DNA of 64,000 bases from an uncultured virus (IMG/VR IMGVR_UViG_3300043108_000047). Lineage: Duplodnaviria; Heunggongvirae; Uroviricota; Caudoviricetes. Positions 18,316-64,000 of the stretch are shown piece by piece. The stretch's first letter is position 1, and every line of letters begins with the position of its first letter. The position numbers and the translations under genes are program-made. The stretch covers positions 1 to 64,000 of the IMG/VR virus record IMGVR_UViG_3300043108_000047. One strand, given 5' to 3'. The notes under the pieces were generated by a model. That model saw nothing but the letters and a program-made list of their open reading frames with translations, did not search any database and was not told the DNA's origin.

Positions 18316-18603
18316 ATGTTAAACATAACTATAGTAGTCAATAATTCTAAAGAATCTAAAAAGTTTACAGATGCTATCATACCTGTAAATAAAGAAAAGG
18401 AGTCTATTTATTTCACTATTTTAAATACGGAATATCACTCGGATAAAAACCGTGCTTATAAATTAAAAAGTGAATATGGTGCTAGATTAAATCCATTTAT
18501 TCTAGTTATGAAAGATGGGAATTTAAATAAACTCTTTTACAAAGAAGCTTGCGAAGACCCTATAGAAGATTTAATTAATTACTTAAAGGATGCGAGAACT
18601 TAA
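18316..18603 (+). CDS. thioredoxin-fold-like protein lacking CxxC
   Basis: AYKLKSEYGARLNPFILVMKDG; paralog of 24347..24604. Confidence 0.55.
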   Translation: MLNITIVVNNSKESKKFTDAIIPVNKEKESIYFTILNTEYHSDKNRAYKLKSEYGARLNPFILVMKDGNLNKLFYKEACEDPIEDLINYLKDART

Positions 18604-24346: not shown

Positions 24347-24604
24347 ATGGATATATTTATTGTTTATAATGATGAATCTACAATAAAGAGAATAGACGGT
24401 ACTTTTAAAGTATCTCCTTTCTTTCATTTTATAGATGATCAAACTAGATATGGCAAGAAGGAAGCTTGGAAATTAAAAGGTAGTTTTGGAGCTAGATTAA
24501 CTCCATTTGTAGCAATATTTGAGAATGATAAACCCATTAAGGCGTTTTATTCAGAAACTGGGGAAGATGTAATTAAATCTTTAATTAATTATTTAAATCA
24601 ATGA
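24347..24604 (+). CDS. thioredoxin-fold-like protein lacking CxxC
   Basis: AWKLKGSFGARLTPFVAIFENDKPIKAFYSE. Confidence 0.55.
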   Translation: MDIFIVYNDESTIKRIDGTFKVSPFFHFIDDQTRYGKKEAWKLKGSFGARLTPFVAIFENDKPIKAFYSETGEDVIKSLINYLNQ

Positions 24605-33442: not shown

Positions 33443-34345
33443 ATGATTAAAAAATGGACTGAGTAGGAAATAGAAAATTTAGTATCTGAGTATAACTCAG
33501 GTAAAGATACTGGAGAATTAGCAGTTATGTTTAATTGTTCTAAGTATCAAATTAGAAATAAATTAAAAGATAAGGGGATTGTTTTAAGAAAAACTGCCCT
33601 TAATCGAACTTATAAATCGAAAGCTATTGTTCCGTTACAAGCATGGACAGATAAAATAGGCAGTCCAGAATTTGACTATTTTATTGGAATACTAGCCTCG
33701 GATGGTTGTATTGTTGATACTTGTACAGCTTTAGAAGTTAAAGATTTAGAATTAATAGAAAATTATAATAAATTTTTAGGTTTTCGATGTAATATTAATT
33801 CAAGAAAATCTAAAGTTAATGGCAATGTCTATTATAATATTAAGTATAAAAATAAAGAAATAGTTAACTTTTTATCTGAATATGGTATAGTGCCAAGAAA
33901 ATCTAACATACTAATGCTTCCATATATAAATTGGAATATATTATTAGGAATTTTTGATGGAGATGGTAGTATTACTAAAGATAAAAGATATGAGTGCTGT
34001 TTTAAATTTACTATTACTTCTGGAAGTATTAATTTTATTAATCAAGTTAAGAAGTTTTTAGAAAAAGAGAATATCTCTCCAAATATACAAGAATATAATA
34101 CAGATAGTGGACATTGGTATAATATATATGTAACTAAAGGTGAACATATATATAAAATATATTGTAATTTATATAAAGACTCCTCTTTCTTTCTGTCTAG
34201 AAAGAAAGAAAAATTCGGCCCCTTAGTAGAGAAATTTGCTAAGTGTAACTCCGTAAATTCAGTTAATGGGAGGGAAAACCAGAAGACTGAGCCAAGCCTT
34301 AATATTGAGGAAGGTGCAGAGACTAGAAACGGAGAACCTAAGTAA
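33443..34345 (+). CDS. LAGLIDADG homing endonuclease with in-frame TAG at codon 8
   Basis: MIKKWTE(TAG)EIENLVSEYNSGKDTGELAVMFNCS (HTH), YFIGILASDGC, LLGIFDGDGS; 300 aa. Confidence 0.85.
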
Positions 34346-35573: not shown

Positions 35574-36112
35574 AATATACAATTGATAATCATACTTATG
35601 AAATAGATTTTAAACGCTGGGGAAATTCACTTTTCTCCTATATAAAGAATGGTTTATTTTTTAGTAGAAATATTTTATCCATACTTATTAGTCATCCTAC
35701 TGTATTCTACCTTGAAGAGCGTTCTGGATTTAAATTCAGTGTTTTATCTTTTATAGAAAGACTTGGATATAAGGATTCTCCTTATGAGGCTATCCTACAG
35801 GAATGGTATAAGGATTTTGAATTATACTTAGAAAATGAAATTCTAGATCGCACTAAAATTAAAATTGGCGATACAGTAGTTGTAAAACCTATACATAGTA
35901 GTGATACGTTTGATTACATAGGTAAAGTTACTAAAGTAGATTCTGAATCTAACTCGGTGCAAGTTGAAACCGCTTGGAATGAAATTGGAGAGGGTCAGAT
36001 GCTCTATTTATGGTATAATGTAGAAAGACTTCAAAAAATTCCTAAATATTGGACTAGAGAAGATATTATATTTAATAATGTAAAAAATATAGAGACTGAA
36101 AATGGCTACTAA
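35570..36112 (+). CDS. hypothetical protein with KOW/SH3-like C-terminal half
   Basis: ATGA-coupled start; IKIGDTVVV...GKVTKV. Confidence 0.65.
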   Translation: MKYTIDNHTYEIDFKRWGNSLFSYIKNGLFFSRNILSILISHPTVFYLEERSGFKFSVLSFIERLGYKDSPYEAILQEWYKDFELYLENEILDRTKIKIGDTVVVKPIHSSDTFDYIGKVTKVDSESNSVQVETAWNEIGEGQMLYLWYNVERLQKIPKYWTREDIIFNNVKNIETENGY

Positions 36113-36755
36113 TAAGCAATGGGCAGAATTAGAGGTAATTAAAGCTATTACATATAATAAATCAACTGATGCACATGCAGAAGATATTTATAAAATGGTT
36201 TTAAACGCATATGAAGAAATAACCGATAGCTTTATAATCGGCCCTTCTAGTTTTACAAAAGTTAGAATGGTTAATATATTGCGGCGGCTATTACTGCATT
36301 TACCATTAAGCCCTATTACAGAATCGGATTTTTGTGAGGATGATAAATTTATATCTCCTAGAGATGGTATAAAGTTTGAAACTCCCTGCATTAGAGATTA
36401 TCCCGTAACTAAATATGAGTATGAGGATGGTACTATAGAATACGAAGATTTTAAAAGAGCTATTTGTGTAAATATATCATATCCTGAAATAGAAGAACCT
36501 ATAAATTCAGTATTTAGGGATTGGTTAAATAAAAACTTTCCAATAACTTTACCCTATTTACCAAAGGTTGAAAAGTATAGACTTTATATTCAAAAGTTTG
36601 ATTATGCTGGTAAAGAATATGAACGAATATGTAGAATTATTACTCCAGAATTTGAATTAATCACCCCAGATTATGTGTGTAGTGCACGGGATTATCTGGG
36701 ACATATGGAAAGAATATCTAAATTTGATTTCTTAGAGGCTTGGCGCAAATCTTAA
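36102..36755 (+). CDS. hypothetical protein
   Basis: 217-aa ORF (LPLSPIT...FPITLPYLP). Confidence 0.75.
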   Translation: MATNKQWAELEVIKAITYNKSTDAHAEDIYKMVLNAYEEITDSFIIGPSSFTKVRMVNILRRLLLHLPLSPITESDFCEDDKFISPRDGIKFETPCIRDYPVTKYEYEDGTIEYEDFKRAICVNISYPEIEEPINSVFRDWLNKNFPITLPYLPKVEKYRLYIQKFDYAGKEYERICRIITPEFELITPDYVCSARDYLGHMERISKFDFLEAWRKS

Positions 36756-42183: not shown

Positions 42184-42385
42184 CGAAGGTAAACACTGGT
42201 ATCAATTACAGTGGGAAAATATGGATTTTACCCAGTTTGATAGAATTAAAGGATTAAAAGACGTAACGACAATAGATGGATTACAGAATTTAGTTAAAAA
42301 GAATTATCCTAATGTAAATCTTACTTGGACTCTTTTAGATAAAGTAAATACTATACGAAAAAAGAAAACACGAAATGGAAAATAA
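42152..42385 (+). CDS. hypothetical protein
   Basis: 77-aa ORF. Confidence 0.62.
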   Translation: MMKYLIKVSFDEGKHWYQLQWENMDFTQFDRIKGLKDVTTIDGLQNLVKKNYPNVNLTWTLLDKVNTIRKKKTRNGK

Positions 42386-42686
42386 TAATTTTATAAAACA
42401 ATCGTCTCCAGTTGCTGAATTTGAAGCTATAACTAAAGAAATGCTAGAAGTATTTAAAAGAAAAAATCACGATTATGGAAATTCTTTTGAAATTTCACTA
42501 GATAAGTTTGGAATTATTGCGGCAGTAGTAAGACTTGGAGATAAAATGAATCGTATAGAATCTTTAAGTACTAAAAAACAACAAGTAAATGATGAATCTA
42601 TAAAAGATACATTACAAGATATGGCAAATTATGCTATAATGACTATAATGTGGTTAAATAATTCTGTAAAGAAAAAAGATCTATAA
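42375..42686 (+). CDS. DUF1599 / nucleotide-modification-associated domain 1 protein
   Basis: KNHDYGNSF...RLGDKMNR...ESIKDTLQDMANYAIM. Confidence 0.8.
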   Translation: MENNNFIKQSSPVAEFEAITKEMLEVFKRKNHDYGNSFEISLDKFGIIAAVVRLGDKMNRIESLSTKKQQVNDESIKDTLQDMANYAIMTIMWLNNSVKKKDL

Positions 42687-42688
42687 TA

Positions 42689-42773
42689 TAAAAGGGGTTA
42701 GTTTGGCGATTGCCAGGCTAACCCCCTTATTTTTTAAGCCGATGACTTTATCTAAGTTGTCGGCTTATTTTTT
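42689..42773. terminator. tandem (bidirectional) terminators between convergent blocks
   Basis: GGGGTTAGTTTGGC-gatt-GCCAGGCTAACCCC flanked by A and T tracts; second hairpin TAAGCCGATGACTT...AAGTTGTCGGCTTA. Confidence 0.85.
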
Positions 42774-45700
42774 CTTTTCTGCTTTATAAGTATCTTGAAA
42801 TGATTTTAACACGGCTATATTCTAAACCGCCATATCGGTCGCAGCTTTTTCACCTAACGAAACTTTCAATAAATCAGTCATTAGTTTTATATTCTAAGAA
42901 TATATAGGAGGATTTGTATTTTCTCCCAAATATTCAAATACATTATAAATACCTCTAAATCCATCATAAGATCTAGAAGATCCTCCGTATAAAATTTCAA
43001 CAGCGGCATTTACTAAAGCATTATTTTTTGGCATCTGTTCTTTCTTAAAATTACTATATGCTGGATTCAATACCTAACTGTATAGAGTTCCAAAGAATAA
43101 CCAAGCTAATCCATCTGTAAGTAATTTCATTAAATTTTTTCTTTGCATAGGATCTAACCAAATATCTTCTTTAAAAGTTCCCTATGGAACAGCTTTAAAA
43201 ACATCATATAAAGTATACATTATACCCTAAACTATTGTTGGGACTTTCTTTAATACTGGCTAAATATGAGTTATATTTTCTGTAGCTTCTATTTCTGTTC
43301 CGTCATAATAATATTTAGTACTTCCATTATCCTGTACTGCATATATTAATCTGCCAGAGTTATCAAAAAATAAAGGACGCCCAGAATCATCTAAATCCTA
43401 TTCTAGTTTAAATTCGGTATTAGAATATTGTCCTGGTTTTAACATATAATTAGCATAGATGCCGTTCATCCAGGTAGAGAACATTCCAAAGAAAGTTCCC
43501 AAAGCCATGTGTTCATATGCCGCTCTAGTACTTTTATCATAAGAACCATATATAGTATCAGCTGCATGTCTAATTACATTAACTTCTTGAAAATTATAAG
43601 GCATTGGAAGGTCGTCGCTCATTTGAAGAGCCTATTCAGGATGATCTTGATTATATGCTCGTATGGCATTAAAATATGCTCCCATCTATTCATAATATTT
43701 TGGATTACTTTTATTACCTGATGCAAATATTTTAAAACGCTCATCTTTTTTCCAATCATAAACTAATTTCCCATCTTTAATATCAAAAGCATCATAAACT
43801 CCATCTTCGTAGCATTTAGCAACAAATAAAGTCATTCTATTAAGAAAATCAGGGGCGCGTAATGTTGAATACATCCAGTTCTAATAATTAGTTATTCCTC
43901 TTTCAGACTTTAATCCTTCTGAAATTCTAGATATATCCATATTTGAAAGTCTATATATCTAGCATAATTGATTTACTATGTTAATAGATCGACTATCAGA
44001 AAAAGAATTTTTTATTACTGTGCCGTAAGCCTTTGTTAAAGATTTTGGAGATATATTAGTTTGATAATGATTTAAAGATCTCATAGTATTTTGCCAAGCG
44101 CCTTCAAAAGTGTCTCGCACTGCTCCTTTTATATTTCCAGCAATTAAAGTATTAGATACTAGTCTTCTAAGAGGTGTAGTTAATCCAACTATTCTTTGAG
44201 ATGCTTCATCCATAATAGAAGTTCTGAAAACATTTACTTTTACGAAGTCATCAATCATTGAAATAGTCTACTTAACTACCTTTTCCATATTTGGATTTTC
44301 TCCTAAAATGTCTAACTAAAATAAAACTCCTTTAATAACGATTAAAGCTTTATTTAATTCTCTAGTTTCAATATCGCGTTCTATAAAATCTGCTAATAAA
44401 CTTTCTAGATTAGTTTCAAAATATCCTTCTCCATATTCAGAAATATATCCTTCACGAGTTAATCCTTCCATATAGTTATTTCTTTTAACTCGTTCCCCTA
44501 TTAAAAATTTATTCTATAATTTCATAGCTTTAATGCTAACATCTCGTAATTCCTATTCTTCTTTATTATCTATATCATTAATATATTCTTCTACTCCTTT
44601 TTTTGGATTTTTTAATAATTCCATGGCTAAATTTTTAGCGTAGGATAATTTTTCTTTTATAGAATATTTCTACAGGCGAGTAGATTTAGAAGCTCTTTCT
44701 AGAGGAATATTAAAATAAGTATCAGAATGATTTTTAATAAAAGCTTGTAAATTTGGATCTTCCACACTTGTAAAATTAAAAGATATTCCCATCATTGGAT
44801 ACCTTACTTTTGCAAATTCAAATAAAATTCTTTTTAAGAATTCCTATTTAACACTTTTATGGCTGGTTATCTAAGCCATATCATTAACATCGTAAGGATT
44901 TAACAATCTTAATAAATTATGCCCTTGATTATCTTTTCTATATAAATCTTCAAACTACGAAGCCTAATTACCAATAGTAGCATTCTATAATTTAGTGTAT
45001 CCAATATCATCGTAATATTTATATAATAATTTACGAATTGGCACCCATTTATTTTCAGCCTACTCGGCTATAGAGTTAATAGTTTTAGTATATAAATCAA
45101 CAATTATACGAAAATTTCTATTTGGAACACTACCACTTACAAAACCATATCTATCCATACCACTAAGTACTTTTTCTGTAGGACTAATTTCTCCAACAGT
45201 ATAGTAGGTAATAGCATTAACAACCTACTAGTATAAAAGAGCTATTTTTTTAAAGGAAGGATCTTTTAAAAGAACCTAAAAATCAGTAGTGTCAAGTTGC
45301 GGAAATCCGTCTTTTAAAGCTTTTTCAACTTCTCTTAATGCTGTTATTTTAGCCTCGACTGTTTCAGCAGATGCTAATGCCCCAAATCCTGTTTCAATTA
45401 ATTGCTACTTTTCGGATTCTGAAGCCTTGTTATCTTGTATAATCGATTCATATTCCTACAGCAAAGTCTAAAATCTGCTTATATAATAATATTGTCCAAA
45501 GTTATTTTTAATAGTAGTATTTGGTAATTTAGTATTTACATATTGAATAATAGGGGTAAAGCACTCTTTTGATAGTGTTTCTATGCTAAATGGAATTCCC
45601 TGACCTCCATTCCTAAGTGATAGTACTTGTAATTTACCCAATATTAAATCACCTTTTATTTTCGGCAGAACTTGGTTTAAAAGAACCATTGTTCTAACCG

Positions 45701-47375
45701 CTTCAATATTACCGTAGTTTGCACGATAATTAAATAAACTTCCAGATTTATTATCGGGTAAATAATATCCCAATACAGTATTGCCTCTTTTACCTATATT
45801 TATTTCAGTTCCTAAATTAAAGGTACTTAAAGTAATTACATCTAATTGATGGGTTATTTTATTTTTAATAAGAATAATTCCAGCGCTATTAAGAGTATCG
45901 TTTTCTAATAATTCCCAATCAGAACCCTCTTCCTTAGATTTCTGAACAAAATATTTACTTAATATTTTATGTAAATAAGCTCCATTTGTAGCATACGCAG
46001 AATCAGTTAAAAATGAAGTAATGCCAGTATTAATACCAGCTTTAATATCTTTTAAAAGACGGTGTAATACAACATCATTATTAGTATCAAATAACTCTTT
46101 TCCATTTCTAATTACATGCTCTAAAATTTCGGTATTTTTTTCTGGTTTTGCATTAGATTTTATGGGAATAATTTTATCCTGCCCTAATTCTAACTAATAA
46201 GCATATTCAGGATTATTACTATCTAAAATATGAGATTTATTCTTTTTAACCCATTCTAATGCAGTTAATCTAACTCCATCGGCTTGAATATCTCTAGCTG
46301 GAAATATAAGTTTCAGTTGCTCATTTACTATATCAACATCTTCATCGTTTATAGAATCTAATACTACAGAAGATTTTATAAAATTACGGGCAACTTTATC
46401 ATATTTGCCAAATACATATTTTCCATTAAATACAGTCAATTCAATAGGAGTGTCTCGCATTATTGCAGATTTTACTACAGATAAATCATCATTATATTTT
46501 ATTTTAACAGGAACAATATTTAAAGTAGCGTGACGTACACTAATACCCTAACTTGCCAACATTTGTTTCAGTAAAGCCATTTGATATTTATACTTTTCCA
46601 GCTTTACAGATTGTGGCTATATAGTACTAGTGGTTGTTTTAAAATTAAATAAATGTACATCTCCAGAAGCATCTACTACAACCATATCTATATGTCCAAA
46701 TAAATCTTTGTCTATATTTTCTATTTTATTTTTTATATTTAAATTATATATTATTCTGGAATGCTGTCCCCCATTCTTTCTGAGTATTCCACCAAGAGTT
46801 TTTTCTTTAAAAGTAATATAACTATCCCAAAGCTCTCCTGCTACGGCTTCAAATTTAGTTCCTTTAGCATCACTCTCAAAATCTTGCCGATCGTAATCTT
46901 TAGAACTCATTTTAGATAGTAGAATATGTAAATCTGTACCGTCATCTGCAATTATTTGCCATTTATCTACTTCTTTTTGAGCAATTTCTTTAGCTTCTTC
47001 TTCACTTAATCCTTCTGATACTAATGCTGTTGCGGTCTCAGAAATATAATCAGAATCATGTAATTTATAAATTAGAGGTTTTCCATTTAGAGTAAATTGA
47101 TTGGAATCAATAAATTCCTGACCACTTATAGAATCATTGTCTGAAATTATAGGTTCTCCATCAAAGAATGATGTATTGCTTTTTGAAAATCCTTCTTTCC
47201 TAAGTTCTACTAATTTAGACACAATATCTTCCTAAGTTATTAATGCTGCATCTCTGCTAAGTACTAAATCATTGGCAGTTTTTGCATTTCTCTTTTTTCT
47301 GTATTCTTCAATAAGATCTAAGTAACTATGTTTTTTGTTATTTGGATCAGCTTTAAAAGTATATGTACATCCCAT
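42765..47375 (-). CDS. large virion cargo/ejection protein (~1536 aa, TAG=Gln) with PD-(D/E)XK-like domain and C-terminal hydrophobic segments
   Basis: Track fragments 43398, 43686, 43959, 45468, 46194 and 46617 share one frame and end at TAG; starts MGCTY, ends KAEKKK*; GHIDMVV...FNFKT. Frame spot-checked, not exhaustively. Confidence 0.8.
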
Positions 47376-47376
47376 A

Positions 47377-49743
47377 TTAACATTTTTCAATTATATTCTT
47401 TTCCTTTATCTCTTTAGCTATCCAATTAGATGCCTCTCTGAATACTTTTCCTGTTTCAAAATCTAAACCTGTGGCAGATTTTCCAATATCTTTATTAAAT
47501 TGTAAAAAAACATTATTTAATTTTCCTTTATATATAGAATCTATATCATCCTCTTTTGCCAATGTAAAAATTCTTGGAAGAAGTTTATCAACTTCTTCTT
47601 TAGTTTCTTCTAAAGCTTCGTCACTAGTTTCCTATCTATTAGTATCAAATATTTCAGAGGAGTTTTTACCAGATATAAATTCAGAAAATAGTTTTACAAA
47701 AGCTTCTTCTGCTACGTCAATATCTGCTAAATTTGGATAAACTTTAGCTTTTAAAAACTATTTTAAATTACGACCTTTTTCTGTTGCAATTACTTTTCCA
47801 AGTAATTTTTCATATGCTTGATAATTGGAAGCCTTTAAAGCACCTAGAATTAAATGTGTGTATTCATGAATTGCGTCTGCAGAAGTAGCAACACTTCCAT
47901 TTATATATATTTTACCCTTCCGAATAAAAGCTTTAGTACCAGCAGGTACTTCTGGGAACTAAGTAGTTACTTCATCCTATGTGAGCACTTTGGCGTTTAC
48001 ATTAAATCTTTCCGTTAAATGTTCTACGACTTCATCAATTAATCCTATGATCGGCTAAGGTCTTTTATATTTACTGTTTACAGTAATTTTATCGTCAGAT
48101 AAAGGAATTACATTTAAAATATAACTAGATTGTTTATAACTATTTTCTGCCTATTCAACTTTATGGGAATTCTAAACATAATATCTTAAATAATTATTAT
48201 TGTCTATAGCGTTTTTAATAGTTATTAAAATACTATTAAATTTATCAGCATTTTCTTTTGTTAATTTTCTATCTTCTATAGAATCTCCAGTTTCTTGATT
48301 TATTAAATAGGTAAATATTCCAGCAGATTCTATACTATTAACAATATTCTTTAAACTCAAAAACTAAGACTCTGTTAATTGTTCTTTAAAGTGTTCATAA
48401 AAGTCTTCTAAGGTCTAATCAGATCTTAGCATTGTATATTCATCGTAGTTTAAATGTGTATTTTTATCTAAATCAATATTTAGTAATTGAATACCACTTC
48501 CACTTATATGAAAAATATTATTATTTACTTCTAAAGTTCTATTATAACTTCCTGGAAACCGTAATCCTATATCAAATAGTTTCTTAAAGGATCCTCTTTT
48601 AGAATCCGTATATAAAATATCTATAGCTTTTTTTGCTTGAGCCATATTAGTAAACTCATTAGGCTAATCTGTTGGAGCAAGTAATCCTCTACTATAAATA
48701 TAAGATGTTTTATCATCTTTAATATATTTATAAATAGTAAATCCTCTATAATTTTCTACTTTCGTAGTATATTCGTTAATAGAATCATAAGTAAGATTTA
48801 ATTTACTATCTAATGTTTGAAAAGCTATTTTTAAAACTATAGCATCCTCATTTATACTCTATACTTTACAAGATAATTCGGTTAAATTTTTTTGTATTTC
48901 TGTAAATAAATCCTTTACGAATTGTTCATCCTTTTTCCAACCTTTTTTTAATTTAATATTGGGAAAAAACTATTTAAGTATAAGTTCAAGCTAATCATAA
49001 GTAAGAATACTACTATTAGAATCTTTTACTTTATCAGTTCTAGCGTTTAATTCCATATCTAAAGGTTGGCTATATCCTATATATGAGTTACTAGTTAAAG
49101 TCCTAATAGTTTCAGTAAGTAATCCATAAGTTCCGCGTCCAACGGGGGAAGTTCTATATGGAGCATTATTAGTTAAAAAATCTATTAACAAGTCCTGAGA
49201 ACTTTTAAATTTCTTTTTTAAAGCTTTTTCTACTATTGGTTTTATTGCCGAAATTCTATCATCTTCTTTGTAACTGGTTAATACACTATTTTTTGCTCTT
49301 AAATGCGCATATAATTTTTTAATACTTCCTGGACTATTCTATACTACGTACACTAAACCCCCTGTACTACTTTTCTTATATATAACATCTCTAATATTAA
49401 TACCATTAAAATCAAAAACGTCTATAAGAAGTATATCAGGATCTTCAGATATATTAGGAAACCCATCAGGATTTGCATATTGTAATGTATGAAATTTACA
49501 ATTACCTACTATACCATCTTTTAAATCCTTTAATTCTACAGCTCGTTTATCATACTTTTTTAAATTTTCAATAATATCTATTAAGTTTTCTTTTATTTCT
49601 GTATTTGAATTTAAAACCTTAGCTATATTTGTTAAATTTACTGTTTTCGGAATAAGGTTACTGTTTTCTATAACAATCTTAGGGAGAGCTTCATCGCCCT
49701 CCCTAAGAATACCATTTATATTGAATACTATATCACATCCCAT
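47377..49743 (-). CDS. virion cargo protein (~788 aa, TAG=Gln) with zincin-like metallopeptidase domain
   Basis: Fragments 47377, 48172, 48415, 48991 and 49339 share one frame; KAFIRKGKIYIN...AIHEYTHL at ~47850. Confidence 0.8.
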
Positions 49744-49744
49744 C

Positions 49745-52700
49745 TTAACAATTTTCTGTATTAATAATTATTAAACCTCTCTTTATTAAATTATTTAAAA
49801 TTCCTACAATCTATGCCACATCATTAGATCTTAAACCTGCAATTGCATTAATTTTTAAATTTGCAAAAGGAGTTTTTATGCAACCATAATCATTATAATT
49901 CTAAATTCTATTATACTTTATGGCATCATTTTCTTTCTAATCTGCATAATAATCAACATCTGGAACTAAATCTTTAGGACTTCTATATTGTCCTTTATAT
50001 TTACGTTTATACATAATTCTGCCATTTATGTATTCTCTGACTATATCCTCATTATGACTACCTTCCTAAGTTTCAGAAATTACAGGAGCAATTTTATAAC
50101 GCGCATCATCCATATTAAATCCCCATTCTTCTAACTCAGCTATAGATTCTGGCATTTTAGCATCCACAAAATCTAAATCTCCTACATATTTCATAAATGA
50201 TTTAATAATAGAATCATTTTTTATTATGCCTAAGAAGTTTCCAAATAAAGTAGTCAATCTATCAGAACCAAATTTATTTTTATTAACTACTAAATTATAT
50301 AACATAAACCAATCCGATAAAGGTCTCCCGCCTAATTCATAATTTTGTAATTTAATAAAATCACTTAAACATTCTTGATATTTACCTTCATTTTCAGCTG
50401 TAGAAACAACATTCTACATATCGAGATTTAATCTTAAAAATCTTTGATTCTCATTATTTAAGTCAAATACTAAATTCCTTATAAATTTATTGTCCATAGG
50501 AAATTCTTTCTTCACTACCTTACCATCTACAACGTCGGAATAATAACCTTGTTTTAATTCTGAAAATAACTTTTCTTCTATTAATCTTTTAAAAGACCCT
50601 CTACTATATTCAGAATCTACTACTATATGATCAAATTCACTTGTAACTGTTTGATCATCCCAGTTAAAGTCTATTATTTTATCATCCTTAAATATAGGAT
50701 ATTTAAATTGCTGCTCATTTAAGAACTTTAATATTAAAACATCATCAACATAATCAATTAATTTTTTTATTTTAAGATCGTCAATAACATCATAGTCATC
50801 AAATAATTTTGCAGTTAAATTTTCAACAAGGGCAGTCTTTTTTATACAAGTCTATTCAAAAGTGTAGACAGCTTTAAGAATATCAAATATAGATTTAAAA
50901 TGAGGTAATTTATCAATTATGTCAAATACATTCCAAGTTCCTTTTATTAAATTATAATAATCGGAAGTAGCTTTACGATATCCGTTTTGATTATTTAACC
51001 ATTTCTAAAAACTAAAAGTATTTACAATTCCTAAATCTTTAGCAGTAGTCAAAATTGTTCTAATTTCTTCTTCTGAATATTTAGAATTTCTATCTTTTAA
51101 TGTTTGTACTAAATTATTAAAATAATCTTCATTTTCAAACTATTTAGCACTTATTGCAAACATCATTTCTTTATTATGTACTATTTTATTAATTCTAATA
51201 TTTAAAGCTATTAATTCTTCAATAGAAGTTGGAATACCCTAATTAAATCCTAATAAAGTAGATCCCAATTCACTTGTTTCAGTAGCTAAATTATAAACAT
51301 GCTCAAACTCTTCTAAGTCTGCAATATAATCAGATTCAGTTAATCCAGAATCCTTAACCTTATCAACTAAATTTTCAATAAAATCAGATAATGCCATTAT
51401 TCCATTATTTAATTTAGACTTAGTTGCTTGCTGCGAAGTATCTAAGAAATCAAATAATTCCTAGTCTATTTCTCCAGATATTTTAGCAAAGAAGAAATCT
51501 TTTAATAATTCATCAAAGTTATATTCTTTTGGAACTAATTTAGATTCTGAAATTTCAGTTTCTGCACCCTCTTCATTTTTCATTTTCTTGGTAATAGTCT
51601 AAGTTTCCATTCCATACCCAGCATCATGTAATGCTTTAGAAACTTTAGCATTAAGAGCTGCAAAAGCTTGATTATATAAGGCTTGTGATACATAATTTCC
51701 ATATTCTTCATCAAGAACTTTAGAAGTACCACTTAAAAACTATTTATATGGAATGTGCCCTCGCATCCATCTTATAACCTTATTCATATTTGTTTTGTAC
51801 AAATATTCATCAAACATATTTACGTTATTAAGATCATTTGCTATAGATACAACAGGACTAGTCATGAAACTAACTATATCATTAATACTGAACCCCATCA
51901 TAATAAGATGTAAATAACATTTGGCTAAATTAGTTCCAGCATTAATCTTCGCAAGAATAAGCTCCTTAGCATTATCTGTTGCCGCAGATAATAATTGACT
52001 AATTAAATCGTCTGCATAAATACCATTTTCCTAAATATTTCTAACAGCCTCAATTAATTCCTTATTATAAGCTTGCCATGTTTCAGTTTTATTTTCAATA
52101 TCTGCATCTGTGATATTATATTTGGCTCTTAACTCAGCATCAATATCAGAAGCTGCATTAAAATATAATCTTAATTGTTCGTTATTTTCGAAATTTATAT
52201 TTGCGATAGTATTCTTAGTGAGGGACTACATATTACCAGTAGATCTTCCTTGTATTCTATTAAAAGTCTAATTAAAATACATATTTCTAAGTCTTATCGG
52301 ATCTCCAGTTATTAATCCTTCATTCCAATAGTGGCTAGTATTAAAGAATACTTTTTCTCCAACGGCTGTAATACCAATAACTCCTTTACCTACCATATTT
52401 TGTTCTTGCATTAAGAATTTAGTAAGAGGATTCATTAAAGTCATTCTTTCAGATTTACTACCTTTAGGACTTTGTTCTGATGCCTTACGTATAGAAGACA
52501 TTGCAATTGGAGAATATGCCTAGTCCATATTTCTTAAATTCTAAATAATATTAGAAATTGAAGAAGAAACAGAATTTTTTAAGCATCTCTAAATCATATT
52601 AGGAGTTATTTCTGTATCCTGATGGCTTTGTAAATCATTAACTATATCTTGAGCTATATTATCGTCTACAGTCCATGTTATATATTGATATTGTTTACCC

Positions 52701-52975
52701 TTAGAATAAGTAATAGGTTTATCTTGTAAAACTCTAAGCAAATCAGCTTCTGCTCTAATCTTTTCTACTTTAGTTGTTTTAGAAGCAATTTTACTAATAT
52801 AATCTGAAATATCAAAGCCAGTATCGCTTTTTACATATTTAACACCTTCTGGTATAGGTAAATATTCAGAAGCTCTAAGAGTATCTATAGAGGAATAATC
52901 AAATAAATTACTCCATCCTAAATATTTTCCATTATCATCAAATTCATATCCCATTATATATGCTTTATCAATATC
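49745..52975 (-). CDS. virion RNA polymerase, exon 2 (TAG=Gln)
   Basis: Starts DIDKAYIMG; VIGITAVGEK, SAATDNAKEL; ends INTENC*. Confidence 0.85.
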
Positions 52976-54055
52976 CAGTATACCCTATGTCTTTCAACAT
53001 AAGCTCGACTATATCATCACTTGTTATCAAGTGTCTCGCGCTTCGAAACAGCACTATGCTGTGCAATGAATTCTTTCTTAGTAGAACTTTCTCGTATTTT
53101 ATATAAAAGAGATGGAACTTGTTCAATATATGGTTTTACTATTTTAATAAATTTATCAGAATCATTGTTAGTACGTACTGAAATAGAATATAATTTAGAT
53201 TTTTCTATAAAAGGTCTAAATTCTATATCCCAGACATCTTTAAAGTACTCTATTATCATCTTACATGTTTCTTCATTGACACATGTGGATATTTTAATAC
53301 TTCTTTGAATTGATCCATTTCTTTGTTCTGATTCATTTATATTAATAAAACCATCATCCATAAACCATATGGCAAGACCTTGAGCATCCAGCCAATTCAA
53401 TAGGTTTCTTGTAAAGGTTTTCTTTGGAGTATACACCGAGCGTCTTAAAGCTTTAATAGTGGAATGTAAAGATATTTGAGAGTATAAAACACCTTTACCT
53501 TTATTATATCCGCATGTAGATATATACTCCTTAATTCCATTATTTTTTATACCGAGTTTATTAAGTAATCCAACTTTCCATTCTAAATATTCTCGTTGCT
53601 CTACAGAATGAGAAAGTTTAAAAACATAATTACTAGAGATTGTGCCATCTCCCAGTAATAATGCTATTAATAATCTTTTTTGTTCTTTACTAAGTGATTT
53701 TTGAATTTTTCTTGCCATTTATTCAATAATTTAAATTAAACATTGAATAAAAGTTCTACTCCCTTTCGGGATAGTCTGTGAACTTTCATCCTTGCAAATA
53801 TAGTAAATATTTTATCAATTGACTAATCAATTTATATAAATTTTACCTAGGATGCTTAGCTGCGGATTGTCTAATTTTATATACTTTTTACTATACCAAT
53901 AGTAATTAATTATTGCCATTAGATGTATTTCTACTCTAATTTAGTATATATAAACTTAAAGAGTTTCCCGCAATTCACGAGATTTTATGACTACAATATT
54001 TTATCTAGTTTAACTAGAAGGGGTTATGTCATACTACTCTGGTATGGTAGTATCA
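52976..54055 (-). mobile_element. group I intron splitting the RNAP catalytic DxDxD motif
   Basis: P1 GACTAT|.../GTAGTC, P10 AATATT/GATATT; P AATTGCGGGAA, Q AATCCGCAGC, R TTCACAGACTA, S TGATATAGTCG; terminal G at 52976. Confidence 0.92.
53017..53718 (-). CDS. LAGLIDADG_2 (I-SceI-like) homing endonuclease
   Basis: LIALLLGDGTI, QREYLEWK, GLAIWFMDDG; no internal TAG. Confidence 0.9.
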   Translation of the reverse strand: MARKIQKSLSKEQKRLLIALLLGDGTISSNYVFKLSHSVEQREYLEWKVGLLNKLGIKNNGIKEYISTCGYNKGKGVLYSQISLHSTIKALRRSVYTPKKTFTRNLLNWLDAQGLAIWFMDDGFININESEQRNGSIQRSIKISTCVNEETCKMIIEYFKDVWDIEFRPFIEKSKLYSISVRTNNDSDKFIKIVKPYIEQVPSLLYKIRESSTKKEFIAQHSAVSKRETLDNK

Positions 54056-57000
54056 ATAGTCAGAACCCTAAAGCCAGGTCTGCCAATGGCTTACATAGCA
54101 TATATTCTTGCTACTCTACGTAAAAGCTACTGCTTTCATCTACATAAAAGACTGTAAAGTCTAAGCAGGGATACGAGCAGCTGTAAAATATAAAGATTTC
54201 AAGAAAGAAGAATAGACTTCCTCTGCAAATTGTGAATAATAATTTACTAAAGCTGCATTATATTTCTTTGTATCTATATTAATATGATCATTTTTTATTT
54301 TAGCTGGTTTTAAATATTCTTCTAGAGTTTCATTTAAAAATTCTCCAGCTTTTCCAGTAATGTTTATATGAGGAATAATACTCTTAATATGGTCAGCTGA
54401 TGATGTATACATAGAATCATTAAGTCTTATGCCATTATAATTATTCTCATAATACATTTTAGTCATAATACTTCCAATCTATTTATATACATCATTCATA
54501 AGTTTATCTCTGAGAGCTTTTACTTTCTAGTCTTTATCTAATTTCTAATATTCTTCTGAATCTGTAAATCCAGTATCCTTTCCAAAGGCTGATAACATAT
54601 TCTAAATATTAAAATGTCTTAGATTATAGGTTATAGGATGATTTCCTTTAACTTCAACTATCTAATAGTTAGAAACATATTCTTTATATCTATATACAGC
54701 GCCTTTATAGTATCTAAGTTCTGGATCTACAATCTCAGTATTATCTTTAGCACTATAAAATTTACCTTTTTGATAAACTATATCTTTTGTCTTTATATTC
54801 TTACCTACTTTAAATAAAATCTAATTATCTTTTGTGGTAGCATATACTTCATTATTTTTTTCTAAAGTATATTTCCAACCAATATTTCTAGGTTTAAATA
54901 CATTTTCTGGATCTACTTTAGGAGTTTTAAAAGTAATGTAAGTATGTTTACCGCTACCGGTAGTAAATGCCATATCATAATGTTTGGAAATAATAGGAGT
55001 AATTCTTCTAGGTTTAAAATAATTAGCACCGAAAGATTTTAATTCGGCTAAAGATCTTCCAGAAGTATTGTACTTAGAAGCATACATATTAGAAATTACT
55101 AATTCTGCAGCTTCGTTTTTTAAATTATATATTTTTCTACCTTTGTAAAATCCTTTTTCTAGTTCATCAAACATTTTCTAAATTTCACGTCTATTCTAAG
55201 TAGCATTAAAATTAGAATCTTCTCTATTTAAAAATGACTACACTACTGGTTCTGTTAAGAATACATTAGTAGAGACTCTATGTGTAGTAGCCTTAGCTAA
55301 AGTCTTCAATCCTCTTTCTTCTTCGTAGTAAGTATTTTTACCTCTTTCTACGATAGGATTAACAGTATTTATTACGACTGCATAAATTCCTGGAACTTTG
55401 CCATCCTCTAATTTTTTCTTAAATATTTCCCGATTTCTTTCAACCCAAGTATTGAAAGTATCCTTACCATATTCTATACCAAATATATCTTTAAAGAATT
55501 CTTCATCAGTTTTGTCCTAGTAACCATATCTGGCTTTTCTTTCTTTTAATGTTTTTCCATGACCATTCTTTAAATCCAGTTCTCCTTTTTTATTTGGAAT
55601 TTCTTGCCTAACATTCTTTTCGTCAATAGTAAGATCTTTCCAATCATTATTCTATCGACGCCCATTAGACATAATTTCTTTTAATTCCCAATAAAGTTTA
55701 TTCCAGTGGGCAAAACCTTCCACATCCTAACCAGTTCTATTCTAACCATCTACATACTAAATTATAGAATATGGCTATTTGGCTACATAAAACTCATCCC
55801 CAACTTCAGGTGCCCCAGATCCTTTAGTTTTAACAGCACTGTCGAAACCTCTAGAATAATCAGAATTAGAACCGTGCCAATATATATCTTTTTCAACACT
55901 ATTGGGATAAATACTGCGAATGTACTGAGCATAATCTTCATTTGTTGCATTTATTTCCTATAGAGTAGTTGCTAATTCCGGGTTTTGCTACATTACTACT
56001 CGTACCTAATCTAGCGTATTCTAACTTATAGATTCTAAATTAGGAGTTTCAGACTATTGCTAAAGTGCAAACCAATTTTTAAATTGCTCAATATCCTATG
56101 TGGTTCCTAAGAAATGCACATTCTCTTTCTTATTATTTAAAATAACTGCTACATCAGATCCAAATTCATTATCAGTTTGTTTCCCTAAAATAGCATCATT
56201 TGGAGCTTTATCTTCGTCATATTCAAAAGATATTCTAGCAGGAGCTAAGTCTCTAGCCTATGTAACATTTACTGCATAAGATATGTCATCTTCAGGATTA
56301 AGTTGTCTACCAATTAATTTCTAGATAAAATTTCTAGTAGTTTCTTTTCTATAAACTCCTGTTATATCATTATTAGTACGCCCCTCAAAGGCATAATAAT
56401 TATATGGATCATCAAGTCTTAAAGTAGTTGCATATTCACCATTTATTAAAATATCTACTATATCAGTAGGCTAAAATTTAGTATTATCAAATGTTGCCTT
56501 CTTCCATTCTTTTTCCTAAAAAGTATGTAAATAAGCAGCCACTAAATTTTTATTATAAATAGCAATACTTTCCTTAGAAGGGTCAAAATCTCTAAAAAAA
56601 GATTCTTTACGTTGTAACTATCTAGCTTTTTTTAATACATCATCAAACTATTCCTCATTTCCATTATACTTAAAAATCTAAATAATTCCATATCCCGGTA
56701 CCATTACACACCCAGATCCTGGAAATTTACGTTTAACGGATTTTTTATTTAAATTAGAAATAAATGTAGGAATGATCTAAGTAAATAAATTACTATCACT
56801 AAGAGGTAACTTAAGATTATCTAATGTATGATCACTTGTTAAATTAAATCTTTTCTTAATTTCCTATACTATAGGTGTCGCTAAATCTACTTGATCTACA
56901 CGCTATTTATAATTATTTAATAACGTTTTACCTATAATATCATACATTTCAGATTTAATAGCAATAGTAGGTAAATCATTACTTTTCGCTCTAATATATT

Positions 57001-60000
57001 TAACAGCAGCATTAATTTCTTCTTCAGATGCTTTGGTGCATAAATATCCTAATGTTCTATATACTTGCTTAGATATTCCATGTAATCGACCCCCAGCTTC
57101 CAAAGCTGATATTACCTGAGTAAACTCAGTCATTTGAGCATCGTCAATATCGTGGTCTGCATCCATTTGAATTCCTAATCCATTAGAATTTAAAGTCATA
57201 TACCTTAATTTAGTCTAACCTTTCCAAGCCTCTACACCATTTATATTTGCAGTTCCATTTTTAACAGCAGACTAATTTGCGGCATAAGAAATCATCATAT
57301 CCTTTAAAGGTTGATAATAAGTGCTCTAACTCATAATATCACTATCGGCATTTTCTTGTCGTATAGTTACATTATTCATGAATCCTACAACTGCATATGA
57401 AGAAACATCTGAATATTTAAGAACATTAGTATCATTATCATCTAGTACTCGTTCCATAGAGTAAATACCTCCAAGAACATTAAATAATTCAAATAAAGAA
57501 TTTATATTATGAGTTCCTTTAACTTTCGGAGAAATTCCTCTAAATTTAAGATGATTACTATCAGCATCAAATCTATGATATACTTTAACAGGATCTCCAG
57601 AACTTACTCTATCACCACTTATATTTACAGCAAATTCTTTAGTATAATAACCAAATTCATCTAATCCAAAATCAACGATTCTATAATAGCTGCCATTTTC
57701 CTCATAGAATAATTCTCTACCTGCTAATATATCCTAATAGAAATCAATTTTAGTAAAGCCATTCTTTTTATATCCTTTAGAATTAACTAGATCAAAAGGA
57801 ACTCCCTTATCATTATTCCAGGTTACCTGCCCATCCTCTCCAACTGTTGTCCATTGTAAATTAGTCATTTGCTTAAACAAATCATACAATTTAATATCCG
57901 AGTTAAGAGATGTTCGCATTCTTTCATTTGTTATAGTAAATGTTGCAAATTTAAGAAGAGTTGCGGACATTGTTCTAGTATCGTAACTATGCCAAATTGG
58001 TTTCTTATCGACTCCAACTTCCTAATCTTGTAAACCTCTATTTTCAAGAATTGATACAAAAGGATTAATGTACGCAGAACCATCATGAGCATCTTCAGTA
58101 TCCGAGTCACCTCTAAAATTAAATATCTTAGCTTGGGTATCTTTAATAACAGCTACCTTCATTTTAGCTGGAACTCCATTTAATACATTCTATTGTATAT
58201 ACTACAGAGTAGCAGGAATAATTACATTACGTTTTAATTGAGTACCTTGTGCTACAGCTTCAATTTTAGTAATAACTTTATCATATAATGGTTTTAAATC
58301 TGAATGCTATTTTACCCAAATTAAATCCTTAAAATTATCCTTAGCTTCATATTTTTGATAAATATTTCCATCAAGAGCATATAAATTCTTATTAAATTCC
58401 TGAATAATATTCTATTTAATATTGTCAGAATAACTAAGTTTTGCTCCCATAGGTAATACATTAATAATATTTTTTATAAGAACTCCATTTAAATTAGTTC
58501 CATCTAATGTATAATTACCTATACCATCAGTTGTCAATACTGCATTTCCTTCATCAGTACTTAACTATATTTCAGTATCACTAATTTTTGTTGTTTTAAT
58601 GTCATTAGTATTAACTTTATTAAATTCAAAATTAGTTCCAGTAGTAAAAAATTTAAAATACTGAGGACTATTCTAAGGATTAATACCTAATTTTAATAAC
58701 TCTGAAGTATAATTAATTTTAGCCTTATCTGGATGAGCAATTTCGGAACCTGTTAATTCAAATCGTAAATTATTAGCCAGAAGAGTATCAGTAAAGAAAT
58801 ATTTTTCTAATAAAGGATTTAATTCTATAGTATCATTTTCATTATATTCAATTTCGGAACCTTGATAAATATTCGCACCATTTACTTTAGCTAATATTAA
58901 TTTATTATGATATATCCAATTATTCCTATAATGTTCATTTTTAGTTACTGTTGTCGAACCTTCGATCATTTCTTTTTTAGAAAATACTTCATCAATAATA
59001 CGAGAAATAGGATTACTAGTTATTCCTTTTCTAATATTGGGATCGTTATCATCAAAATAAGATACATAGAAATTAACTCCTGAAGAAAGTAAATCATTTA
59101 AAAAATTAAACTGTTCTCGTTTAAAACGATTTACCAAAGAATTTCTATCCGCATATAAATTAGTTGCATAATGATATAAAAGTTCATTAAATTTACAATG
59201 TTCCCCATTTTTTCTATAATGAGTATCTAAAATTAATGATATTCCTTTTGAATCAGCTAAACTTAATAATTGCTCTTCTGAAACAGTATTTAACCAAGAA
59301 TTAACTTCCTCCAAAGAAGCATCTGGTTTACCCATTACATTTTTTAAATCGTTTAGTATATTATTATAAGAATTTATATAAGCCTAACCTACCGTGTCCT
59401 AGTATAAATCAATTAAGTTATCACTAGACATTTCCCATATTGATTTATTATCATAAGACTTATTAGGAGCTTTAATTTTCTTATTAGCCTTAATAGCATA
59501 AGTAATAAAAGAAGTTTTATCAGAATAAGTTGTAGGCTATATCAATATAGTTTCATGTAATTTATTTTTAGTGTTACCAAATTTATCAGAATTTAATTTA
59601 GACTATAAATAATTTCCATAAAAATTCTAGATAATGGAGGAATAAAACAACTCAGATGCCTTCATATCTTTAACACTCTTTTTTATACCTGTTCTAGATT
59701 GTGCATCCTAATTAAGTACAGTTTGTGCAATTAATCCATTGTTTTCTGTAAATAATAATGGCGTAGTAGCCTATCCATTCTATTCTTGTTCTGCTTTCTA
59801 ATACTAAGATAAATAGTATTTTATATTTCCACCTAAAAACGATACTCTACTATTAGCAATTTTATTATTGTTAATATCATTAGTAGTAGATTTAGAAATG
59901 TCCCCGTTTATTTGAGACTCTATATCGGCTAAATTATCTATCCAAGAATCACTTGTTCTAACAGAAATTAATTTTGGGATTCCTAAAGTGTTACTTAAAA

Positions 60001-62227
60001 AGTTTTTATATTTTTCATACGAATTAAAATTCAAATTTCTAAAAGGCAAATACCCATCACTACTTTTTAGAAATTCAGTAAAATACATTTTATTAGGATA
60101 TTTTCCTTCTTTCAATTTTACATTAAATCTGTGGTACAAATCATTTACTACAGCAGTTCTAAATACACTTCCTAAGATTTCTTCAATGTATAGATTTTTA
60201 TTAGCGTCATATCCTTTATAGAATAACAATTTAGTTAATCCATCTTTTGATAAAAAATCAGTTCCTAAATAATCGTCTATTAATTGTATAGTATCCCTAA
60301 ACAATTTCTCATCAGAAGACAATGCAGAAGGATTATTTCCTAATTGTAGTATTCTATTTATAGAGGATTCGGAAATTAAATCTATAGTAGAATCTTTTTG
60401 ATCAAATATTGTATTTAATCTAGGATTTGAAAAAGTTATTTTAATAGGTTTGGAGGATAAAATACCCATATCATTCTTAGTAGTTCCTGTAATGTAAAAA
60501 TCCCCAACTTTAATAGAATATGTATGACAATCGTGTCTTCCTAATCGTTTGGACTCTTCGATTGACATATCTTCATCTATAAGTTGATATTTATCACATA
60601 AAGCTTTTCTAAGAGCGTCATTTTTAGTTATAGAATCGTATTCACTATTAATTCTATTTATTACATTATACTAACCTTTTCTAGCTGCCCCCTTCTTTTT
60701 GGTAGTTACTTCTACCATATTAGATTCTTTAGAATACACAGCTTGAGTATAAGTAGAATCCATGGTTCTGTCCATTACTCCTGTAATGGCATCTACTACA
60801 GAATAACCATTAATTGTAAAACTATTCTTAAGAGCTTCTATTTCAATTCTTCTAATTGAATTTTCATTATTAAGATCAAAAACATATTTAGCAACTGAAG
60901 TAAGTATATTAAGATTAAAATCATTAATTCCGGCAGCTTTTAATTTATAAGCCATTTCAGGTTTTAAAATTTCCTAAAATATTATTTTACTATATACCTA
61001 CGGATCATTATGAAAATTTTTAATTGCTTTCTACAGAGTAATAGCATTAGACAATCGATCGGCATTAACGAATAAATCTTCTTTAGCACGAGTAAAACTT
61101 CCTATAGAACAATATCTATTTAAAAATTTATTTTCGGTTGTTGAATATATTGGAATAGTACTGATTGCTAATTTTGAAAATTTGCCGATATGATCTAAAG
61201 CATTGTTTTTATCGTCGGAAGTTTCCCAACCTTTTACTTTATGTTCATCATCTTTAGCAAATCTGTATTTTAAAAAAGAAGAATCCATTTCAACATTATT
61301 TAATCCGGAATCACTTAATTCTATACTTCTTCCTACAGCATCTTTTAACATGTCGTCAAAATAGATTAAATTAACATAAGAATTTAAAGCATCATAGAAG
61401 CTATCAGAATATCCATTTAGACGTTTTCTCCAACCTTCTGTAACTAAATCTTCAAGAGTTCTGTTTTCCTAATCTATTTTTAAACCTTCGTCTTTAACTT
61501 TTTTTAATTCATTGTAGAATTGATTTAAAACTTGTAAATATCCTTTCTATAGTTCACCGTCTTCATTATATAATTCTTCTCCAAAATTATAATTCGGATT
61601 GATAGACTTTAAATAATTTACAATATTTTTAAAATACCTATTTTTAATGTCACATATAGCATCATTTAAATCCGCTCGTGTTCTAATAAGCTGCCTATTG
61701 TCTACGTCTACAACAGTAACTTTAGAAATATCTCTTCCAAATTGTTCTACTCTATAATCATTTGCTTTAATTACCGTACCATAATAATCCTCTACTATAT
61801 CTCTTAGTTTCTAACTTAATCGATCCTTTTCATTAGGAAAATCTTCAAGATTTTCAATTTCAGGTTCTTCCGGATCTGTTTCAGTTTTTATATCCTCTGC
61901 ATTTAATCCAGAATCAGTAATAAAGTTTTCATTTATAGTTTTTAAAAGAGAATCTACATCTACACTTTTCTACAATACATCTCTCCATTTTTCAATTAAT
62001 CCTGTTAAAGTTTGCTATAATAAAGGAATAGACTTTAAGTATTTCTAAGTTTTATTTGTTTTATCTCCAAATTCGAAAGCGACGGCATCACTTTTAAGAG
62101 CATTAATTATTGCTCCATATACTACATCAACTCCTTTACCCTTGTTTTTCCTCGTTGCCGAGCTTAGTATAGATACCAAGCTCGGACTATGAGTATTATT
62201 AAATGTTTCTTTTATACAGTACCCCAT
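54056..62227 (-). CDS. virion-encapsidated double-psi-beta-barrel RNA polymerase, exon 1 (TAG=Gln; spliced ~3800 aa)
   Basis: All - strand fragments from 54161 to 62045 share one frame and end at TAG; HDGSAYINPF, RKFPGSG, RIPA(Q)TLQS, WL(Q)GSDY|DIDK. Confidence 0.85.
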
Positions 62228-62244
62228 AAATAATTTTTATTTTA

Positions 62245-64000
62245 TTAACAATTTGTCTTGGAGGTAAGTCCTGCATATAATTCATCAACTGCGTCTTCTC
62301 CAGCAAGCATTACCTATTCTTCCACAAATGATATTAATTTATTAATACTATCTGAATAATCTTTAGATGTTTTAGATTCATTACCATAACTATTGTAGCC
62401 GCCTTCTAAGAAATCTACAAATTCTATTAAACTAGGATCCATTTTAAAAGTATCAATAAGCTCCTAATTACTGTTTATCCATTCTGTTATATAGGATTTT
62501 AGATATTCTAATTTAGCTTGTTGTATTTTTATTAGTTCTTCTTCACTTACTTCTGAATTATTTTTAGCTTTTTCAGCGGCTTCTTCAATTTCTGTACTTA
62601 TAGCTTTATTAACAATTTTTTCGACTTTTAAACCATTTTTATTACCTCTTATTACTTTTAATATTGTACCATTTGGTAAAGTTAATATTAATGTACTATC
62701 TTCCCAAGAAATATCTTCAGGATTAATACTTTTAATAGGTTCTTTTAAATTAGCCTTTTCAGAAATTTGTTCAAGAATAGTTACTCTAGTAATTCCCGAT
62801 TCTCCTTTTGACATATGATATATTTCATTACCGGTAACTAACTATTGGCTAAATAATCTTTCGCTATTCTTAGATAATTCTTTATTTATAAGTGGGATAA
62901 GAGCTTCCTAGATAGCATCGTCATTTTCAGCTTTCTTCTTAATTTTATTTATTTGATCGTCTGAAATACCTAGTTGCTAACTTTCTGCTATTAAATCTAA
63001 AGTCTCTTGAGAATGAGTTTCTGTGGGTTCTATTGGGGGTTCTTCTGTTTCTTCTACCTAAGTCGATTCCACAGCTTTCTGTAATTCATTTAAAGTAACT
63101 ACAAATATAGGCATGTCAATATCAGCATTAACCGTTAATAATTTTTCGTTAGTAATACATTTTCTAAACATTGCCTAATTATTAATTTCTCCAACAACTT
63201 CAGCACCCATTGGATCAATATAAATACCATTTGGAAAATATGCATCAGTTGCGTGCCAATTAGTTCTAGTAGGATTTGCAGTTGTACCATGGAATGCTAG
63301 AGAAATTAAATCATAAAAAGAATTATCATGAAAATCTTCCCCGAGATCTCTAGGTATGTAAATATCACTTTTAGAATTTACAAATTCTCCATAATAAAAC
63401 TTTATATCTTTAGTTTTATCATTAGCGTCTTTTAAAACAATAGGAGCAATATTATAATCCTCATTATACTAATATCTATAAAGATTTTTATAAATATACT
63501 AAAGTACATTAGGAATATGTTTTAATGCTTCTTTCTTTGGAAACTATATTTCATAATTAACTCCATCTTCTGTAAAAGATAATGCAGATCCAGTAATTAA
63601 AGAAGAAGTTAATCCAGATATTGAATTTCTAAATCCCTCTTTAGTGGTAATTTGTCTATCTTTAGGCCACTCCTTTCCATCATTTGTTTTAAGTTTGACA
63701 GTATCTTTAAGTACAGTTGATATTAGATAATCTAACATTTTATACTATTTTTGAGCTGTAAAAGGAGTTATATATATTCCTACCGGAGTTTTATTAAGTC
63801 CTTTATAAAATCCATTATCAGCACTAATATTAGTTAGTTCTCTTAAATAGGTTCCCGAACCAAGTCTGCTACCACCTACTCGAAATTGTCGTACTCTAGA
63901 TGCTAAACTATCATTAAAATCTGAAAGTAACTTAAGTTCTTCCTAAGTTGCAGTAGTTTCTGATAAAATTTTGTCTACTTCTTCATCTACTTCCTCTGCA
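62245..64000 (-). CDS. large virion cargo protein, C-terminal part (TAG=Gln, 5' end outside window)
   Basis: Fragments 62464 and 63544 share one frame; ends GLTSKTNC* (TAA 62245-62247). Confidence 0.75.

Follow-up and report, generated by a model that had tools for sequence, protein, structure and literature searches.

Why do consecutive giant proteins of a gut crAss-like phage carry a cysteine (Cys) at exactly the ends that face one another? The question is raised by the first 64 kilobases (64,000 nucleotides, hereafter the window) of the 124,604-base IMG/VR contig IMGVR_UViG_3300043108_000047, where four large cargo genes, designated A to D, follow one another on the minus strand. Gene A, the 3' part of which occupies 62245..64000 (-), encodes 3115 residues; its protein begins outside the window at genome position 71592 with MKEND and no Cys, and ends SKTNC, the codon for the last residue, Cys3115, being TGT (62248..62250, -) followed by TAA TAA. 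Gene B lies in two exons, 54056..62227 (-) and 49745..52975 (-), and its protein begins MGYC (Cys4, codon 62218-62216); after splicing it closes with LIIINTENC, the last residue being Cys3800 (codon 49750-49748). Gene C (47377..49743, -; 788 residues) begins MGCD (Cys3, 49737-49735) and ends IEKC (Cys788, 47382-47380), and gene D (42765..47375, -; 1536 residues), which closes the block, begins MGCT (Cys3, 47369-47367) and ends EKKK. The gaps between genes are 17 nucleotides for A/B and 1 nucleotide each for B/C and C/D. The original prediction had described this arrangement, with Cys at the end of every upstream protein and at residue 3-4 of every following one, the three short gaps and a Cys-less last terminus, and all of it was confirmed when TAG was translated as glutamine.

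Cys is therefore present at six of six junction-facing ends and at neither of the two free ends, since the start of A and the end of D carry none. The open reading frame (ORF) ends created by an intron within B both lack Cys as well. Proteins A to D are poor in Cys, not free of it, with 23 internal Cys in 9,239 residues (0.25%); at that frequency, a Cys no more than five residues from all six ends would arise with a chance of 3.6e-12, a post hoc figure. Among the other ORFs of the genome (n = 64, 1.4% Cys), none ends in Cys, three have one in the last five residues and one has it in the first five. An independent contig at 98% identity (L001) shares the B/C and C/D junctions. We propose that the facing ends probably dock and are locked by inter-chain disulfides, which would join A to D into one reducible head-to-tail polyprotein.

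The pattern extends well beyond this phage. A survey of Crassvirales cargo-gene termini, which the original prediction had called for, found the Cys to be conserved and paired between neighbours. Across 17 named genomes, covering four Crassvirales families, phi17:2, Lbo-JY46 and A-4L, a Cys was found within 12 residues of 22/22 inner C-termini and 22/22 inner N-termini, and of 0/17 and 0/17 outer ends, with 0.9% expected per window of that size. For this count the starts of crAss002 and cr110_1 were moved to a downstream ATG; the first ATG places their Cys at 35 and 17 and gives 20/22 inner N-termini. Six records were kept outside the count, namely IAS virus (ambiguous bases, likely frameshift), the intron-split cr116_1 and cr108_1, and Dulem virus 41, MT835492 and MT835470, in which the first gene is truncated; their true junctions are paired, save one IAS virus junction that is one-sided. 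The three cargo proteins of phi14:2, 5,398 residues together, contain no Cys besides the four terminal ones, and crAss001 gp47 and gp49 have one Cys apiece. In 12 of the 17 named genomes the chain consists of two proteins, neither of them with a Cys at both ends, and chains of five proteins occur in relatives in which A is split. A larger set of 88 IMG/VR loci, many of them near-identical, yielded 51 distinct tight junctions, of which 44 were paired, six had no Cys and one was one-sided. All six Cys-less junctions lie between an upstream cargo gene and A, outside the chain, and eight of nine wide, intron-type breaks in these loci were without Cys.

Individual families gave the same result. Of 150 profile hits to C, the 123 with 700-1100 residues and mutual identity below 50% were kept, 27 falling outside the length range; 121/123 have a Cys in the first ten residues and 123/123 in the last ten, where 2% would be expected, and the internal Cys content is 0.2%. 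When 107 C sequences were aligned, no more than four columns proved invariant, and Cys3 and Cys788 are two of these. Homologs of D (n = 43, one being D itself) have the N-terminal Cys in 43/43 cases and a C-terminal Cys in 0/43. As observations in their own right, a 119-residue gene sits inside a paired junction of phi17:2 (L011 18731-19090) with both terminal Cys intact, and several upstream cargo genes have a Cys near one end and no facing partner (L004 16987-19515, L005 24333-26918, L006 7548-9221 and L012 29334-31358). Examples of such partnerless Cys are found in LMMB (terminal KQSCR), crAss002 (Cys550 of 557) and Lbo-JY46 (Cys5).

What is conserved is a feature of the proteins, because it persists where genes are inverted and where their spacing or frame differs. 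In 44 junctions the Cys codons lie 5-30 nucleotides apart, occur in all three relative frames and are written as both TGT and TGC, and in crAss001 and DAC15 the first gene is on the strand opposite its partner, about 11 kilobases away, with the Cys kept. The Cys falls at position 3-8 of downstream proteins and 0-3 residues before the upstream end, most often one residue before it in the C homologs. Towards their C-terminus these homologs show an amphipathic-helix periodicity over the last 20 residues, then I-x-E-x-C, while the start reads M-x-C followed by alternating hydrophobic residues. An AlphaFold2 model of C (mean predicted local distance difference test score, pLDDT, 88.4) places a helix at 765-780 (pLDDT about 90) and a strand at 5-7. 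Sequence and model together suggest an upstream end built from an amphipathic helix and a short strand ending in Cys, and a downstream end built from M-x-C and a strand with alternating hydrophobics. The end of B has a longer alternating stretch and the start of D reads C-x-Y, so that the B/C and C/D end patterns differ, which could give partner specificity.

Comparison of split and fused cargo genes provided a further line of evidence. In MT835492 and in 12/12 related contigs A is encoded as two genes, with a Cys on either side of the extra junction, and among the contigs listed the 1540 residues of the first half contain no further Cys. The equivalent zone of the fused A of this phage (about 1410-1447) lies inside a Cys-free stretch from 245 to 1749. 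In L081 the overlap at the split of A is 6 nucleotides shorter, with both Cys retained in their two frames. Conversely, three of four narrowly bracketed A+B fusions, all Suoliviridae proteins, have no Cys at the junction. A junction carries the Cys only if its two genes are encoded separately. Protein A (genome 62245-71592, -) also contains a Walker A motif, GSAGVGKT, at residue 1598, and the relatives' split falls just before that domain.

A solved precedent for such a link exists in cyanopodophage A4. In its cryogenic electron microscopy structure, the C-terminal helix of gp27 sits in a cleft of gp26 and is held by a disulfide, Cys1715-Cys5 (PMC12002296). In the A4 genome (Anabaena phage A-4L), the sole Cys of gp27 is residue 1715 of 1717, the sole Cys of gp26 is residue 5, and the two genes are consecutive, 5 nucleotides apart. 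The likeness to A-D lies in consecutive large ejection genes with a Cys in the last residues upstream and in the first five downstream, free ends without Cys, and a C-terminal helix before the Cys, here predicted in the model of C only. A4 differs in having one link and no polymerase, whereas here there are three predicted links and four proteins (five in relatives). By analogy with A4 the bond chemistry would be a disulfide. The main text of the A4 paper, as available, does not contain 'crAss' and treats the feature as one bond in one phage (PMC12002296).

Among crassviruses the closest counterparts are crAss001 gp47/gp50/gp49 and phi14:2 g067/gp66/g065, which, like A-D, follow the muzzle and two cargo genes and have a DxDxD motif, an HExxH protein, variable fusion and the terminal Cys rule. 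This phage differs in having four proteins, a stand-alone HExxH protein, TAG as glutamine and an intron in the catalytic motif. The paper on phi14:2 notes fused forms of the three proteins (bioRxiv 10.1101/2020.03.07.982082). crAss001 virions have disulfides in the portal vertex and in the tail, where they link subunits, and gp47, gp49 and gp50 are found in the virion by mass spectrometry and are not resolved in the map (PMC10172136). That study ran reduced and non-reduced virion samples, and its Extended Data Tables 2 and 3 may bear on the disulfide claim (PMC10172136). Cys in these cargo proteins goes unmentioned in the main text of both papers (PMC10172136; bioRxiv 10.1101/2020.03.07.982082), and no description of a terminal Cys rule in crassviruses was found in the literature covered, which mostly did not include subscription papers. 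The ejection proteins of Schitoviridae (N4 gp50, DEV gp71-73) are similarly depleted of Cys, including a virion polymerase, which is thought to reflect passage through the periplasm (PMC11445570). Theirs have essentially none, whereas this phage retains Cys at exactly the ends that face one another; Cys depletion accordingly accounts for the low background and not for the terminal signal.

Taken as a disulfide chain, A, B, C and D joined would amount to 1.05 megadaltons. Docking would be non-covalent during assembly in the reducing cytoplasm, and the disulfide would form in the released virion; that oxidation follows lysis is a guess. The bond would then hold the subunits at 1:1 and in a single N-to-C polarity during unfolded passage through the narrow tail, and reduction by the host cytoplasm would free the polymerase. 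A chain of fixed N-to-C polarity would mimic a fused polyprotein and yet be cleavable by reduction. More tentatively, crassviruses and related phages could stitch separately encoded cargo after translation into a megadalton, redox-cleavable thread, in which orthogonal docking pairs set the order, the first protein, by way of the disulfides, tows the rest, including the polymerase, N-to-C through the tail, and host reduction releases and switches on the subunits. Towing in gene order is a weaker claim than disulfide linkage, and we divide our expectation about evenly between towing and a role in packing or stoichiometry. The original prediction had proposed links between consecutive cargo proteins in gene order. 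The links themselves are supported by conservation, by the split and fused comparison and by the A4 structure; the order holds only as that of the ancestral block, because in crAss001 and DAC15 the first gene sits on the other strand.

Several points weigh against this interpretation. For crassviruses the bond is inferred, the crAss001 cargo proteins being absent from the resolved map (PMC10172136), and the A4 precedent is an analogy and not a case of the same family, because homology between D and gp26 was undetected (a D profile scored a probability of 0.4% against A4 gp26, and homology to gp26/gp27 was not found). The survey counts are not independent events, because the genomes are related. 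One-sided cases exist, comprising L096 (one of 28 loci, likely a frameshift error), the IAS virus junction with ambiguous bases and 2/123 C homologs, and chance Cys occur at intron breaks in cr116_1 and L045. The fused A+B protein of cr4_1 has one Cys (2180) in its junction bracket, and the brackets for B+D fusions are too wide to test for a junction Cys. The 23 further Cys in A-D could compete for pairing. As to an oxidant, a scan of 96 ORFs found none of the thiol oxidase or thioredoxin families, and an anaerobic ribonucleotide reductase is among the products of the phage genome. Two small, related-looking ORFs of 95 and 85 residues (window 18316-18603 and 24347-24604, +), with no Pfam match, may resemble a thioredoxin or glutaredoxin fold without CxxC. 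Lastly, the role ascribed to the A4 bond is to stabilise a pentameric ring of packed protein (PMC12002296), which fits packing as well as towing.

This last point leads to the strongest alternative, which shares the disulfide chemistry: the bonds may do no more than stabilise the cargo once packed, or set its stoichiometry inside the head, with no ordered towing. We regard this as possible though somewhat doubtful, its likelihood being a share of that given to the disulfide chain. It is consistent with the statement that the A4 bond serves to 'further stabilise' the outer pre-ejectosome ring (PMC12002296), and with the position of two upstream cargo genes, expected to be first out, outside the chain. 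Set against it, the strict C-to-N polarity reproduces the relatives' fused forms, a mere stabiliser need not be terminal, and those who solved the A4 structure also raise the idea that ejection sets off a chain reaction (PMC12002296).

The original prediction had offered three chemistries, namely disulfide, metal and ligation, of which the disulfide has a solved precedent. Binding of a shared metal ion (Zn or Fe) by the facing Cys of two or more chains is unlikely. It would need no oxidant in an anaerobic host, in keeping with the anaerobic setting and the lack of a thiol oxidase among the 96 ORFs, and 76% of C homologs have a glutamate two residues ahead of the C-terminal Cys. That glutamate is missing at other junctions, each end offers one Cys, anchored profiles reveal neither a conserved second Cys nor a conserved His, no further ligand is conserved across junctions, and A4 has a disulfide at like anatomy.

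Pairing of the Cys within one chain, as a cyclisation, or between identical copies is improbable. B and C do have Cys at both ends, and both termini of C are modelled with high confidence (pLDDT 83 and 88). The first and last proteins of the chain have a single terminal Cys, the two-protein chains of 12/17 named genomes contain no protein with both, the Cys pair appears jointly at the new split of A, and the A4 bond joins different proteins.

A peptide bond between the ends, formed by split-intein-like trans-splicing or through a thioester as in native chemical ligation, is very improbable. A and B end Asn-Cys, which is reminiscent of intein ends. However, chemistry that requires a free N-terminal or strictly C-terminal Cys is excluded, because the Cys lies at 3-8, never directly after Met, and 0-3 residues before the end; it is the last residue in only 36/123 C homologs, and 23% have Asn directly ahead of it. 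Pfam detected no Hint domain, the nucleophile at position 1 and the His-Asn splice end of inteins were not found, and purified phi14:2 gp66 shows activity as a chain of its own (bioRxiv 10.1101/2020.03.07.982082). A further reading, in which the pattern (TGT-TAA-n-ATG-nnn-TGT) acts at the nucleotide level to promote translational coupling, read-through or frameshifting and Cys is a by-product, would suit the 1-nucleotide gaps here and the very short gaps in most relatives, but is scarcely credible given the variable codon distances, frames and Cys codons, the opposite-strand partners of crAss001 and DAC15 and the gene inserted in the phi17:2 junction.

B contains a group I intron at 52976..54055 (-), which interrupts the DYDID catalytic motif; the first exon ends ...GSDY, with T as its last nucleotide and G as the last of the intron. 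The intron encodes a LAGLIDADG endonuclease at 53017..53718 (-) (233 residues; PF03161, E 8e-23). Splicing yields a protein of 3800 residues and restores DYDID at 2723, and six intronless relatives have G[SA]DYDIDK uninterrupted at the site. No Rfam family was detected in the intron at the gathering score, two weak matches to RF00028 (E 0.0045 and 0.015) falling below it. In relatives the break at this site (DY|DID) measures 377-1113 nucleotides or is missing. By motif and position B is the predicted virion RNA polymerase. BLASTP found no match between B and the named polymerases phi14:2 gp66 and crAss001 gp50 at E 1e-3, so that orthology to them rests on position and motif; tblastn in named phages matched two or three unannotated records and no others.

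C has an HExxH motif at 626, conserved in 121/123 C homologs, as in zincin-like proteins. A fold search with the model of C against the PDB gave no clear match, only weak metalloprotease rows (best E 0.018), PDB sequence searches with the C and D profiles returned nothing relevant, and PHROGs and Pfam gave no name for any of A-D. By analogy with known systems, A to D are likely packed in the virion and ejected.

The genome has a crassvirus capsid gene and ring and muzzle genes, as expected of a member of Crassvirales. Pfam searches of its ORFs gave PF24228 above cut-off, with PF23898 (E 2.6e-6, in a piece split by an intron) and PF25702 (E 4e-4) falling short of it, and a 1620-residue ORF matches the muzzle proteins of named crassviruses. 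The gene order is muzzle, several mid-sized genes, then the giants A, B, C and D; the last two mid-sized genes, of 985 and 649 residues, would by position be cargo 1 and cargo 2. The recoding with TAG as glutamine, the many introns, the break inside DxDxD and the few named homologs match the description of the Zeta group of Crassvirales (PMC7886860), which is circumstantial evidence for that placement.

GC skew switches sign near 42.7 kilobases in the window, and when ORFs were read under alternative codes the minus strand beyond about that point was open only with TAG as glutamine. Code 11 left no frame longer than 289 codons on the minus strand there, and under both it and a TGA-as-tryptophan reading the cargo genes stayed closed. 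No transfer RNA genes were found in the 64-kilobase window, so that TAG is read as glutamine on the late-gene strand (42765-64000, -) without such a gene there; the close relatives L003, L027 and L028 use code 11. The plus strand of the window encodes a full sigma-70 factor with regions 1.2 to 4 (31098-31955), a weak match to the Thoeris inhibitor Tad3 (36102-36755; PF25185, E 6e-4, under cut-off) and, at the end of the plus-strand block, a DUF1599 nucleotide-modification-associated domain (42375-42686). Mobile elements are dense on this strand (1674-1931, 2821-3747, 11437-12426, 24889-25797, 28636-29829 and 33443-34345), comprising one group I intron above the Rfam cut-off and GIY-YIG or LAGLIDADG genes that split replication genes, that of DNA polymerase A among them.

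One such bond, that of A4, is already in print; the form proposed here has several links, spans the order and takes in the polymerase. From this phage come a putative chain of four members in a lineage that is recoded and rich in introns, a form with five members in its relatives, and a split and fused comparison on its own A. The model predicts specific pairs in named phages, namely Cys1797-Cys3 and Cys2179-Cys3 in phi14:2, gp47 Cys2339-gp50 Cys5 and gp50 Cys2404-gp49 Cys5 in crAss001, and Cys2220-Cys5 and Cys2265-Cys4 in DAC15. If it is correct, the single bond of A4 would become a general design, the free splitting and fusing of these genes would be explained, and the terminal Cys would help annotators of recoded genomes with many introns to distinguish real protein termini from breaks caused by introns.

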